Shown piece after piece: positions 1 to 9,000 of a DNA stretch of 64,000 nucleotides. Each line of letters opens with the position of its first letter. The stretch's first letter is position 1. The DNA lies in the NCBI RefSeq assembly GCF_053078305.1, contig NZ_CP166879.1; one strand, written 5' to 3'. A program made the position numbers.

Positions 1-3000
1 TTACCGAAGATCGTCCAAGAGCATATACTTTTCAATATGTTAGACCTCATTTTGACCATAAAGAAATCGATTTTACACCGTTCTTTATACGTTCTTTTTT
101 GTCCCAAATATGCCCCAAACAACCACACTTTGCCCCAATAGCGCCCCAAAGATTTAAGGGGATTTAAGTATATATTTCAGATAATTAACGCAAGTTTACG
201 ATGTGAATTTACGTTAATTTTCTGGGTAGGGTATTTACCGTCATTCGTTCATCAATATTTCTGCATATTGACAAATACGCCTGAGCTATCGCGGGAGAAA
301 TGCAATGAAAGCAGCAAAAGGCGATGTTAATCACCCTGCTCATCTCTGTATTACCGTCATTGTGACGGCACTGATAACGAAGAAAGACCTCTGCAAGGGA
401 GGAATCCCTCGCCACCTCTGATGTGTCAGGTATCCTCACCCTCCCCAATCACATTAGCCCCGCACTTCCGTACGGGGCCATTTCTGTTAATCCACTCCCA
501 CTTTTTTGTTGTACTCGCGGTTAAACCGATCCACGGCAATTTTCATATCCCGCTCTACCGATTTCACCATCGCCGACTGTTGCGCCAGACTGAGAGTACT
601 GTCGGCGTAAATGGCATCACGCTGTTTACGCAAATCCTTCAGTCTCTTCCGGGTATCCTGCATAAGCCCGTTCATCGACAATTTTCCGTTGTTCTCGTCA
701 ATGAACGCCGTTCTTTCTGCACCGGTCAGACTCTTCAGCTCTGCGTGATACTGCGCAACCTCTGTCATCCGGTCGTACATCTTCTGCTGGTCAGCATACG
801 GCATCACCTCACCTGAAATTTTCCCCAGGAAGGGCGCCTGCTGCTCCGGTATATCAATACCGTTCAGCGATTTCACCGCCGCATCCGTGGTTTTGGAAAT
901 GAAGCGCCCTGTACCACCAGAGATATAGTCAATCCAGTATTTCAGTGATTCCGGCGTGACATCCACCGCGCCGGGACGGTACTGGCTGCCACCTGAGAAC
1001 GCATTCAGCCAGGATGCAAACGCCTTGTACGCTTCTGGCGTTGAACGTCTTCCCAGCTGGCTGTCAGGTTTTGGTGTACCAAACGGCATGTTCTCCTGGT
1101 AAATCTGCGCCCCCATGAAGTTTTCATTCATGGCAAGGTTCGCAAACGGACGCAGAATGGTCGGCGCTGCATTTTTCAGCAATGCCCCGGACACTGTTTC
1201 CGACGTCTCACTGCCAATCGGGCTGAATGCACCAAGCACACCACCAACAACATTACCGGCAGCACGGGACGCCGTCAGGTCACCCGCCGCCACACCTTCA
1301 GCGGTATGCCCGAGCAGGAAGAAAACGTTGTACCCGTAAGGCAGAGGAATACTCCAGTACTCTCCGGCCTTGCCCCCGAACACCGATTTCATAATGACGA
1401 GGTTACGCTCTTTCACATGAGACGGCACCTTGTCATACCAGTTAACCCCGTCATCATCCTCACCCGCCACGCTGCGGTTAAGCGAGCCAAGCAGATAACC
1501 TGCTCCCACAGCGGCAAGCGCGATTTTCTGCGGCACATTCAGATTCTTCCAGCGAAGGCGCTCCAGTAAAGGTCCCTCACCATTAAGATGTCCGAGCGTT
1601 CTCACCAGATTTGCCGTTCCCTGAATACTGGCGTTGGCGAACATGTACAGCGAGTTCATCAGCGCCCCCTGCTCACCACGACGGTTAAAGTTCACCGTCA
1701 TGTTTTTGGCAAGAGACGCCGCCTGCTGGCGTGACAAACCGGCATCACGGGCGTGTTTATAAGCTGACAGACGCAGTGCGTTTTCAACCGCGCCGTTGGC
1801 ATCCTCGACCAGGTTCAGGAACGAATTCCATGCACCGATACTCTGGCCTTTCCATCCCCCCTTCGCCAGTGAGACAAGGCGATCCATTTCCTTCTGCTGG
1901 CCTTCAAGATCACCCATGTTAAACCAGCCGGTTTTGCCTCCGTCCTCAACAAACTCTTTCCACACCTTCTGCCACTGTGTACCTTTGCCCGTGAGAGTTT
2001 TGCCTCGCAGACTGGCGTACACGGCTGACATTGCAGAACGGCTGTCTTTGACTACAGCCAGGGCGGATAAGTTATCCAGCCCTTTCAGTTTACCGTCGCT
2101 CCTTCCCTGCTCCGCCTTCAGGTTCATCACCGCCGTCTGCACGTCACGGATGAAGTTACTGACCAGGAATTCCGGGTTATACGACGTGTTCACCGTTGCC
2201 AGGAAGCGGTTAACTTTCCCCAGCGTACGAACAAAGGCATTGCTGGTTTCCGGTCCCATATTCTTCATCGCACGCATCAGGCGCGGATCATGGAGTTTGA
2301 TGTAGTACGTTTTGCCGTTCTTTTTGGTGGTGAAGTACCGGTCTGCCATCATTGCCATCGGTACAGGGCGTTCGACAACTTCGCGACGGGTTTCACCAGT
2401 TTCCTGGTCCTTGCGCTCTGCAATCGTCCGCATGGTATCCGGTCTGTCATCGGTGAATACCTGCCAGTAATCCTTGTCGGGATTATCCTGCACCAGTTTC
2501 AGGAAGGCGTTACCCACTTCGTTTTTGCGATGGCGGATCAGCGATTCGCTCAGGTCCTGTATCGCCTGAGTGGACGGAGACTGTGCCCGGGATGCACGCC
2601 CCATGGCCTGCCTGCTTTCACGTCCGCCGATGGTGAAGCCCTTACCTGTACGGGGCAGTGACACCACACCGTCAACATCCTGACCTTTCAGGGGAACGTA
2701 GTAACGGTAGGCGTTCTGCCAGGCATCCACCACACCGTTCTCTTCAAGTCCGGCCTCACGGATAAGCTCACGGCGACGGGCCAGCATATCGTCAATAATC
2801 CCTGCCAGACGGTCATACTGTGCCTGTTTGCCACTGTTACGTACACGCTGCATGATTTCCGCCGCTTCCGCGTTGGTCATCCCCGAACCGCCGTCCGGCA
2901 TTTTCGGGTTGATTTTCGCGATATGCGCGTTACGTTCCGGCGCGTGACGGGCGTAGAGGTACTCATCCAGATCGGCCTGCGCAATTTTGTAGTCCGCCAG

Positions 3001-6000: not shown

Positions 6001-9000
6001 ATCGGCACCTTCGTTCGCCAGTTTTGCGTAGTCCGGTTTCGGGAACAGTTTGCTCAGCGGCTGCGTGGCATAATCCCTGTCTTCCAGCGTTTTACCCAGT
6101 GTTTCGGCAAGCTGTGCATAACGGTGTTTTGCCGCGCCCTTAATCTCCTCGCCAAAGTCTTCAATTTTTTTGCCCCTGACTTCACCTCCGCGTGCGGCAC
6201 CTTCACCATCAGTAGCAGCAACTGTTTCAGACTCATGAGCTGTTGTTTCAGCATGCGGGATGTCGCGATCTTCTCCGGTCTGTCGGCGTACTTCTGCCTG
6301 CTGTGCCAGCTCAGGTAATGAGTTGCGAACAGTTCGGGGAAGTGATTCAGGCTGAGGCATACGAACATTACGCGCAATGTCAGGAGCCGGTAGCCCTTCA
6401 CGTACCGGTGCTGTCGCGTTCTGCGCATCCGGTGACGGCAGACCCCGACGAACCGTTTCACCCTCGAGCGTTTCCCCCTGGCGACCAGCGGCGTTTTCCG
6501 GTGCCGGAGCTTGTCCTTTCTGGAAACTCTGGCCCTTAACCTCACCGGTTGTGGTAAAACGACTACCACGTCCGGCCTGATTCTCATCCGGCGTACGCGC
6601 CACCTCTCCCGGTAACGGATATCCCTGTCCGGGATGAATATCGCCGGGAGCGGGCAGGCGTGGACGCTCAGTTAACTCCTGTGCTGTCGGATCGGCATCA
6701 CCTTCAGCCATCTGTGAACGTACAAGCTCCTCTGCCGTCGGCGCGTTGCCACGGGCAAGGCGGGCCTGTACCTCCGTATCATCCCCCGTGAAACCACGGA
6801 ATCGCGGGTCACGCATGAACGCGGGCTGCTCCATCGGGTCAGCATCAGCAATACGCTCTCCGTCAGCCAGGGTGTTAATGGTTTCCGTTGCCACATCTTC
6901 AGAGAACGCAGGATTATCCATTTCAACGGCATACTGATTCTCGCCTTTCTTCACTACGGACGGTTTCAGACCGGTGGCGGCGGCATTACGGAAAACATCA
7001 CTCCCCATGGCGCTTTTCTCATCCGTGAAATAACGGTTGTCCGGGCGCACCTTTTCAATGCGTTCCGCTGGTCTGGACGCACCATTCCCGTTAATTTCAA
7101 TGCGGACTTCATTCGGGTCCCGGAACCGCACCGTCGGGTAAATGCTCCCGTTACCATCCTCCGCATTTTCAGGCTGTGACTGTGCTTCCGGCGTCACTTC
7201 CTGTTGTGGGCGAATGACTTCTCGTATTGCCTGAAACTGTTGTTCTTCAGTCTCGGTGCGCCCCTCTTTCTGGCTGAGTCTGCGGTATTCCTCAAGCAGT
7301 TCAGAACGCGGCTTCGCCTTCAGCTCATTCATCACAGCCTGTCGCTTCGCCTGTTCGTCCAGTTCATTCAACAACTGGCTGGCAGCTTCCCGGCGATGAG
7401 CTGCGGATACGTCACCCTCTGTTGCCATATCCGCATCAGCATACTGCTCCAGAAGCTGCTCGCGATTCATGCCCTGCATGGATTCACGCTGCTGCGCCAC
7501 CGGATCAACAGATTCTGGTTGCGGGGCTGCGTCGTCCTGCTGCACGGTTTCAGCATCACGCATGGCGGTTTCTTCTGCGGCCTGACGTCTGCCACGATAT
7601 CCGGCAACCGCACCGAATGGACCGCCCATCGCAGCACCAAAAACAGTGCCTTCAATCCCTGCGTCAGTCACCCCCTCCCATGGCGATACATCCATTCCGG
7701 CGGTCTCACGCAATGCCATGTTTTCCTGATAGCGCGAATAGGCGTTCTGTGCCCCGTTAATTACGCCCTGTTCCGTGGCATTTCTGACAATGCCGCTTTT
7801 AACGGTCTTCGCTGTGCCTCGTGTCACCAGATTAAACAGTTGTGCGTCACCCAGTTTTGCCGCCATGGCATTCACAGCCAGCAATTCAGGATCGGTTGCC
7901 AGCTGCGCGCGCACCTCATCGGCAACACGCTCTTTTGCCAGATCCATTTTCTGGCGATCAGTAAGCTGTGCGTGCTGCGGGTCGGCGTCAATGGACAAAA
8001 ACGTCTGCTGAAATTTCGGTGACTGCGCCAGCTCAGAGTAATCCGCATTAAGAACAGCATCTGCTGCCGCCATTGCACTCTGCCCCTGTGCACTGGCTGT
8101 GGAATGGGTGATCAGGCCCGCCTGGAATAAATCCGGCATTTTTTTATCGACAGCTTCTGCTGCCAGTGCCGTGGCTCTTTCCGGCTGCATCCCTGCCGCG
8201 ATGTATTTTTTCTCCAGCCCGGCGGTCAGCATTTTTCGCAGTGTGACATCACCCACCTTTTTAGCCACACCGCCAGCAACCATATCAGGTACAAGCGCAC
8301 CAATCAGGTTTACACCCTTCGCCACCCAGACCGCAGAATCATCATAGCCTTCGGTCATCGGCGTATTCAGCGCACGAACAGCACCCGGCGACATCTTACC
8401 GGTCAGCCATTCATCAGTGGCTTCAGCACCATCACTGACAGCCTTACCGGTTGCCTTCAGACCTTTACCGACAGTATCAGTAACCGCGTTTTTGCCATCA
8501 GGCAGGGTATCGATGACCTCATCAGCCCCCCTGCTGCCACCGGCAAAAATATCCTGCACAGTTGCGACACCCGGCAGCCCCATACGGCTTAACTCATTTA
8601 AAATACGCGCCCCTGTTTTTACCGGGCTTTGAATCATCGCATCACCGAGTCCACGGGCCATTTCCCCTGTTCCCCGGACGGACTGGGCGAAACCTTTACC
8701 CATTGTTGGCAATACATCGCCCAGGCTGAACGACGTACTGTTATCCTTCCAGCGATTCGGATCAGAGAAAAATGCTTCATAGCTGTCAGTTTCGCCGGGT
8801 TGCTGAATGTTCAGGCTGTTACGATTCTGGTTACCGAGTTGCGCCTCAGGACGCTGTTCCTCTGAATAGGCCATACAGACTCCATAAAAAAACCCGGCAC
8901 AATGGCCGGGCATCAGGAAATGGTATTAATGGAATATCGTGAATTACTGGGCGTAATTCTGTTTCAGTCCACGGATAAACTGAGATGCAGATGAAGCACT

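Follow-up and report, generated by a model that had tools for sequence, protein, structure and literature searches.

We analysed a 64,000-nucleotide (nt) stretch of contig NZ_CP166879.1 (assembly GCF_053078305.1), hereafter called the window, in whose coordinates all positions are given. Judged by its sequence, the window is a Shiga toxin (Stx) phage of the 933W/VT2-Sakai type. The subject of this study is a giant gene on its minus strand (487..8874, with the stop codon at 487-489), which encodes 2795 amino acids (aa). Its orthologs are ST933Wp72 of 933W, orf71 of VT2-Sakai and gp47 of phi24B, which share its position, length and Pfam domains, are 98-100% identical in amino acids over most of the chain, and have the same upstream hairpin, ribosome-binding site (RBS) and start. 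The gene was matched in 186 deposited phage genomes at 90-99% nt identity, nearly all of them Stx-converting phages of the 933W/VT2-Sakai/phi24B type (Sepvirinae). For the window's first 12 kb, matches with ≥80% coverage were found in 418 of the 5426 complete Escherichia coli genomes, a lower bound meaning that at least 418 of them carry the giant gene. RefSeq names the product “LPD5 domain-containing” or “LPD38 domain-containing protein”. The gene and its class are already known, and the giant “polyvalent” head protein of Stx phages has already been described.

The gene is the final member of a co-directional block of about 40 kb that runs from Q through stx and lysis to morphogenesis. Upstream on the same strand lie Q (40149-40682), stxA, and the genes for the esterase, endolysin, terminase, portal, major capsid, tail fibre and nozzle. 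On the 3′ side of the gene, 933W and VT2-Sakai have convergent early-left genes, and the STEC1585 prophage ends there. An earlier note on this DNA had stated that the gene ends the late block, and these arrangements bear it out.

The open reading frame (ORF) read from its first ATG spans 487..8913 on the minus strand (2808 aa). The ATG at 8874-8872, which gives 2795 aa, lies 5 nt behind a GGAG sequence (8883-8880; the whole RBS-start element is 8872..8883, minus strand) and is the PGAP start in the closest E. coli genome. Both GGAG and this ATG are invariant in all four aligned junctions, including that of the Salmonella ortholog. In a second junction allele, found in about 58 phages, the upstream ATG reads ATA; it is therefore not a conserved start, and we take the gene as 487..8874. 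The deposited annotations of 933W, VT2-Sakai and phi24B place the start 11-16 codons further upstream, at the non-conserved ATG. The published phi24B peptide table holds no N-terminal peptide that settles the start codon. The ORF of about 2795 aa proposed in the earlier note is thus real, and so is the position of its RBS and start behind a terminator-like hairpin.

The protein consists of conserved ends around a variable middle. The N-terminal module (aa 1-450; 7525..8874, minus strand, as for all segments below) is closed by an invariant glycine zipper, GxxxGxxxGxxxG (G413, G417, G421 and G425; 7600..7638), and is followed by an acidic, Pro/Ala/Gln-rich variable linker of low complexity (aa ~451-930; 6085..7524). 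LPD5 (aa 1051-1200), a CLCA_X-type zincin (aa 1182-1437) and LPD1 (aa 1361-1440) then form one conserved block (4555..5724). This block contains HEWFH (aa 1284-1288; 5011..5025) within an invariant HExxHxxxD motif, as well as an invariant E-x3-R-x2-E helix at aa 1375-1382. A second, small HExxH domain (aa ~1480-1600; 4075..4437) carries HEIIH at aa 1551-1555 (4210-4224). Behind it come a swapped cassette (aa ~1687-1870; 3265..3816), which holds a MuF-C domain (Pfam match at aa 1751-1845; 3340-3624), and a C-terminal module of about 915 aa (aa 1881-2795; 490..3234), which holds LPD38 (aa 2478-2683; 826-1443). This layout, as we read it from sequence comparison, is new here and was not taken from the description of polyvalent proteins by Iyer et al. 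(PMC5512222).

The motif ALAHEWFH, described in the earlier note as zinc-metallopeptidase-like, is present at residues 1281-1288. By composition, 0.04 HEXXH motifs would be expected in a protein of this size; two are present (HEWFH at 1284 and HEIIH at 1551), and both are kept in distant homologs. The Pfam scan matched LPD5 and LPD1 and placed no family on the HEWFH motif itself. The NCBIfam family CLCA_X (NF041907) matched aa 1182-1437 with E = 1e-43 and 243 of its 250 profile positions aligned. The score of 149.6 bits lies below the curated NCBIfam cutoff of 260 for the stand-alone family, which applies to whole proteins, and we read the HEWFH region as a homologous CLCA_X-type domain, not as a member of the stand-alone subfamily. 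CLCA_X is a phage- and plasmid-rich sister family of the self-cleaving CLCA N-terminal metalloprotease; it has the consensus HExxHxxxD and often occurs in long proteins (Lenart et al. 2013, PMC3650047). The domain described here matches that consensus and is embedded in a chain of 2795 aa.

When the region was aligned with 29 homologs (30-53% identity), the pattern INLTK-x2-G-x-G-x-L-x-HEW-x-H-x2-D-x-YF showed little or no variation, and the same holds for the downstream helix E-x3-R-x2-E-x-Y within “LPD1”. H1284, E1285 and H1288 are invariant in all 30 sequences. D1291, E1375 and E1382, likewise invariant, are candidates for the third metal ligand, and the alignment does not distinguish the binder among them. 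The LPD5/HExxH/LPD1 block recurs as a unit, with 1259 proteins matching a query of aa 1041-1700 at E ≤ 1e-5. An AlphaFold model of aa 1041-1700 (mean confidence score, pLDDT, 73) shows the mixed beta-sheet, active-site helix and Glu helix of a zincin: a strand immediately precedes the motif helix (HEWFH lies in helix 238-259 of the modelled fragment), and the conserved Glu lies on a later helix. A Foldseek search with the model of the HEXXH region returned nothing significant; the fold matches reported for the model are zincins, with MtfA, lethal factor, PPEP and CLCA as neighbours, all of which act on proteins or peptides. Searches of PDB sequences with the single sequence and with profiles of all three modules found nothing meaningful. 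In the second HExxH domain, HEIIH is kept in about 23 of the 26 homologs that have the region, and the model shows three strands followed by the motif helix.

These results indicate that the HEXXH domain is a genuine zincin-type, zinc-protease-like domain as far as the predicted model goes. The earlier reading of the motif is upheld by its invariance, the CLCA_X match and the fold, and the possibility that the region does not fold as a metallopeptidase, which would have told against it, is not borne out by the model. The HExxH helix, together with the C-terminal part of LPD5 and the beginning of LPD1, behaves as one CLCA_X zincin, whereas Iyer et al. (PMC5512222) treated LPD5 and LPD1 as distinct domains. 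What is new here is the corrected position of the peptidase domains, with a second HExxH domain among them.

A preprint on phi24B (2026, doi 10.64898/2026.04.10.717836) named MuF-C as the metallopeptidase and suggested that it degrades peptidoglycan. MuF-C is a predicted RNase of the BECR fold (Iyer et al. 2017, PMC5512222) and is without an HExxH motif; by sequence the “metallopeptidase” label is therefore on the wrong domain, the HExxH zincins being those at aa ~1182-1437 and ~1480-1600. The Pfam MuF_C match has E = 3.9e-25 for the allele of the window and 1e-18 for that of VT2-Sakai, and both alleles, compared directly, show conserved His, Thr and Ser residues.

The MuF-C region is also where the protein of the window departs from its orthologs. 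Identity to VT2-Sakai is 98-100% in amino acids nearly throughout and falls to 39-55% at aa ~1687-1870 (about 50% in nt), with sharp edges; phi24B gp47 and the 933W protein differ here in the same way. The allele of the window was found in none of 187 deposited phage genomes with the gene, 185 of which have 39-44% identity and one of which, PhiR5_2, has 77%. Of the 5426 complete E. coli genomes, two have an identical copy, seven a copy of about 91% identity and four one of about 75% identity. The alignments thus present the MuF-C region as a rare swapped cassette, in which a protein that is nearly constant elsewhere is polymorphic, and the rare allele is a new observation of this study. Two smaller patches, aa 841-900 in the linker and aa 361-420 in the N-terminal module (6175-6354 and 7615-7794, minus strand), have 78-88% nt identity to VT2-Sakai against >93% elsewhere, and across E. 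coli alleles the N-terminal 460 aa are the most variable conserved part (79-93% aa identity).

The Salmonella ortholog (3113 aa) has an extra insert of about 270 aa after the first zincin. The insert carries a motif resembling a phosphoribosyl pyrophosphate (PRPP) loop, FIVDDTLTQGGT, and Pfam gave only a faint phosphoribosyltransferase match (E = 0.11); we leave this identity as a lead that rests on the match and the motif. One fragment of the ortholog bears the NCBI name “phosphoribosyltransferase”. In a Salmonella enterica prophage (L004, 5420-14806) the ortholog is a single ORF of 3128 codons, of which the recorded gene call covers the last 1601 aa only. With the MuF-C cassette swapped, an extra insert in Salmonella and the ends fixed, it is the middle of the protein that is being remodelled.

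The ends themselves have a wide distribution. A HMMER scan of 1.84 billion representative sequences with the N-terminal module gave 101 matches; in proteins of 2000-5500 aa the match always lay at the extreme N-terminus. About half of the 62 long matches end with the C-terminal module, within about 10 residues of the C-terminus (local hmmsearch). Pfam found no match in aa 1-1000 or in ten homologs of the N-terminal module. The glycine zipper that closes this module, ahead of the proline-rich linker, may be a membrane-insertion element. The C-terminal ~915 aa recur whole at 32-58% identity and are always C-terminal in relatives, where they occur alone (proteins of about 900-1000 aa) or behind methyltransferases, PF18760, PF18809 or LPD3. 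Three other giant PHROG families, among them the “DarB-like” one of Bcep22-like phages, have C-termini that match this module. The C-terminal module gave a confident model, which has no fold relative in the PDB. In coliphage PTXU04, an LPD38 protein is critical for infection.

The evidence for packaging comes from the phi24B ortholog, which is about 98% identical to the protein of the window. According to the preprint (doi 10.64898/2026.04.10.717836), gp47 is abundant in purified virions and invisible in cryo-electron microscopy (cryo-EM) maps; its listed domains are LPD5, LPD1, LPD38 and MuF-C, and it was proposed to be an ejection protein. The supplement gives gp47 the second-highest spectral count in virions. 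Its counts are highest in the uppermost gel slices, above the portal protein, which indicates that the virion form is mostly very large, and its peptides span residues 36-58 to 2795-2806, which indicates that essentially the full chain is packaged. The peptide values are totals over all slices, and they show whole-chain presence but do not map processing sites. From 746 counts over 2811 aa for gp47 and 101 counts for the 724-aa portal at 12 copies, we calculate about 20 copies per virion, a figure uncertain by a small factor. Thus, the earlier view of the protein as a virion component agrees with published proteomics.

The hairpin before the gene (8885..8911, minus strand) has the sequence form of a Rho-independent terminator, that is, a G+C-rich stem-loop with a T-run in an intergenic position. 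It has seven pairs, six of them G-C (stem 8911-8905/8898-8892), a 6-nt loop (8904-8899) and then seven T (8892-8886), and it lies inside the 69-nt gap past the stop codon of the upstream 421-aa ORF. It is the second strongest terminator-like pattern of the 13-kb region. Q is encoded on the same strand about 31 kb upstream of the gene, which also lies behind several other terminator-like sites and a block of accessory (moron) genes. Stx-phage late genes depend on Q acting at pR′ (PMC7547250). On this arrangement of the sequence, expression by Q-dependent read-through of the hairpin is plausible and is the simplest reading. The earlier note had argued for read-through as the only route of expression on the ground that there is no room for a promoter; this is a weak argument, because promoters can lie within the upstream coding sequence.

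Iyer, Burroughs, Anand, de Souza and Aravind (2017, PMC5512222) defined polyvalent proteins as very large proteins with many domains, encoded by phages and conjugative elements. The domain found most often in them is a zincin-like metallopeptidase, which those authors proposed to split the polyprotein into its components, and they contain domains of unknown function designated LPD1 to LPD40, of which LPD38 is restricted to phage-type members; delivery into the host and self-processing are hypotheses of those authors. Like the phage-type members, the protein described here is a multidomain giant whose gene lies among those for the virion. It combines unrelated domains, namely two zincin-like domains, MuF-C/PBECR, LPD5, LPD1 and LPD38, and, by the published proteomics of its ortholog, it is packaged.

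On balance, we think it probable that the gene encodes a giant polyvalent internal virion protein of Sepvirinae, which is made late and packed in the head, is likely ejected, and carries a zincin that most likely cuts proteins. Transcription would most likely start at pR′, about 31 kb upstream, and a Q-modified polymerase would pass through the hairpin before the gene. The product would be packed in the T=9 head in multiple copies, essentially at full length, and would probably be expelled into the cell at infection. The middle of the chain would bring one RNase-like MuF-C domain of the BECR fold and two HExxH peptidase domains of the zincin type. The CLCA_X-type zincin most likely would cleave proteins, either the polyprotein itself, freeing effectors after delivery, or host proteins, and peptidoglycan would be an unlikely substrate. 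The end modules may serve packaging, ejection, or envelope crossing and membrane insertion, with the middle as exchangeable cargo. A broader idea, which we hold tentatively and at less than even confidence, is that the glycine-zipper N-terminal and LPD38 C-terminal modules are a conserved delivery chassis of the giant proteins of many podovirus-like phages, on which effectors would be exchanged by recombination.

Ejection proteins such as T7 gp14/15/16, P22 gp7/16/20 and the N4 virion RNA polymerase are packed in the head, are encoded side by side late in the morphogenesis block and are absent from symmetric reconstructions. By analogy with these, and in line with the proposal of the phi24B preprint, the giant protein may be of their kind. 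Another counterpart is the “DarB-like” giant of Bcep22-like podoviruses (Bcep22 gp75 and JC1 gp69), which also is encoded by the last morphogenesis gene and has LPD38 near its C-terminus. JC1 gp69 has 4515 aa and is virion-associated by mass spectrometry. Bcep22-like podoviruses are structural relatives of Ralstonia phage GP4, and the portal, capsid and head-closure proteins of JC1/Bcep22-like phages are homologous to those of 933W. The cargo of JC1 gp69 is different: the zincin and MuF-C are replaced by lytic-transglycosylase, methyltransferase, helicase and LPD3 domains.

Several observations weigh against the internal, ejected polyprotein that we favor. Neither ejection nor a cleavage site nor enzymatic activity has been demonstrated for any family member. 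In stored phi24B virions gp47 is mainly very large, so that no bulk autoprocessing is seen before ejection, and the lower-mass signal could be degradation. The C-terminal module has no match to known ejection protein structures, and we dropped classical transmembrane helices, since a hydropathy scan gave only two weakly hydrophobic 19-mers. As to expression, terminator-like patterns are not enriched in the 13-kb region (18 against 13.2 ± 3.4 in shuffled sequences). Folding of the 86-nt junction is only slightly more stable than that of shuffled sequences (z = -1.5), and in the Salmonella ortholog the hairpin is weaker (5 bp), its junction having z = 0.03.

These last points on expression would suit a hairpin that is an RNA-stability or processing element, or neutral, with the gene transcribed independently of Q from its own or a nearby internal promoter, which might sit inside the upstream coding sequence. 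We consider this quite improbable. The stem is G+C-rich, directly followed by the T-run, and intergenic; 124 phage genomes share one identical junction; and the two stem changes of the second allele (C-G to U-G and G-U to A-U) both keep the pairing, although two changes are too little variation for a covariation test. Moreover, the minus strand had no sigma-70-like promoter match within 2.5 kb upstream (8874-11431), and the genes upstream and downstream of the hairpin both encode virion proteins made late. A more serious competitor, though still an unlikely one, is the proposal made for phi24B gp47, that of a structural conduit for ejection, in which the metallopeptidase would break down peptidoglycan and let a trans-periplasmic tube through to the inner membrane. 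The abundance of the ortholog in virions and its absence from the cryo-EM map fit a conduit, as do the glycine-zipper elements in the N-terminal module and in a neighbouring 90-aa protein, the requirement for a related LPD38 protein in infection, and the lytic-transglycosylase domain near the N-terminus of JC1 gp69. However, that proposal puts the peptidase on MuF-C, which Iyer et al. define as RNase-like, and the true HExxH domains are zincins whose neighbours cleave proteins or peptides. In addition, Pfam, NCBIfam and PHROGs searches of the segments revealed no lysozyme, lytic-transglycosylase, amidase, M15 or M23 domain, with the limit that the N-terminal module is without a three-dimensional model and could have a very divergent fold. 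With no peptidoglycan hydrolase found, and with zincin neighbours that act on proteins and peptides, the envelope-remodelling activity suggested in the earlier note is not supported. The roles of conduit and effector are compatible.

A role as a DarB-like anti-restriction protein, which as in phage P1 would guard the DNA against the restriction systems of the host on entry, is very improbable. It is suggested by the match of the C-terminal module to the C-terminus of PHROG 10089 “DarB-like antirestriction” (E = 5e-27), by packaging in the virion, and by the grouping of such proteins as early counter-defence effectors (Iyer et al., PMC5512222). The PHROG match is limited to the shared LPD38 region, however, and Pfam, NCBIfam and PHROGs found no methyltransferase or helicase domain, which are the catalytic parts of DarB; we rejected the family assignment on these grounds. 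PADLOC gave no match, and infection requires the related LPD38 protein even when there is no restriction challenge.

Directly upstream of the giant gene is a cassette of small late genes (8944..11682, minus strand) with ORFs of 421 aa (gp48), 90 aa (“bacteriocin”), 150 aa (gp50) and 243 aa (gp51). In phi24B, gp48, gp50 and gp51 were detected in virions, yet are not among the proteins that the preprint text assigns to the cryo-EM model; the giant gene therefore looks like the end of an apparent internal-protein cassette (gp51-gp47). The counts of the three small proteins suggest tens of copies. The 90-aa ORF (10220-10492, minus strand) has a hydrophobic C-terminal glycine-zipper tail, IGTGIGTGATIGATVGSAVPVVGTAVGAVAGAVIGGIAGALF, and has PHROGs matches to parts of tape-measure proteins and tail lysins; a membrane-pore element is possible.

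Other features of the window were observed as well. Eight nt past the stop codon of the giant gene, a hairpin of six G+C pairs (GCCCCG/CGGGGC, 10-nt loop; 457-478) lacks a T-run on the minus strand, whereas its plus-strand tail is moderately rich in T; the hairpin may stop convergent transcripts that come from the side of a Hok/Gef remnant. Within the late block, positions 12000-16000 form an island of low G+C content (0.43 against about 0.52 in the flanks) with Lom, Hok/Gef and a 408-aa YadA/adhesin-like ORF (12188-13414), and several terminator-like sites lie at 11630-12386; the island resembles a moron block that late transcription would have to cross. Matches to Rfam above the gathering score were two tandem copies of the small RNA (sRNA) STnc100 just downstream of the stx region (37847-38333, minus strand) and, on the plus strand, isrK with the adjoining C4 antisense RNA in the early region (57728-57910) and sRNA-Xcc1 (48757-48845).

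The giant protein takes up about 14% of the phage genome and is packed in many copies. Stx phages spread Shiga toxin genes, and the question at stake is the route by which the DNA of short-tailed phages crosses the E. coli envelope. Since one member of the class is required for infection, the giant protein is an obvious candidate for the entry machinery, for early host takeover, or for both, and H1284/E1285/H1288/D1291 and H1551/E1552 stand out as its candidate key residues. If the chassis idea is true, the rare MuF-C allele would represent live effector swapping in Stx phages, comparable to the exchange of toxin tips in polymorphic toxin systems, and would imply an ongoing arms race with an RNA-based function of the host or of a prophage.

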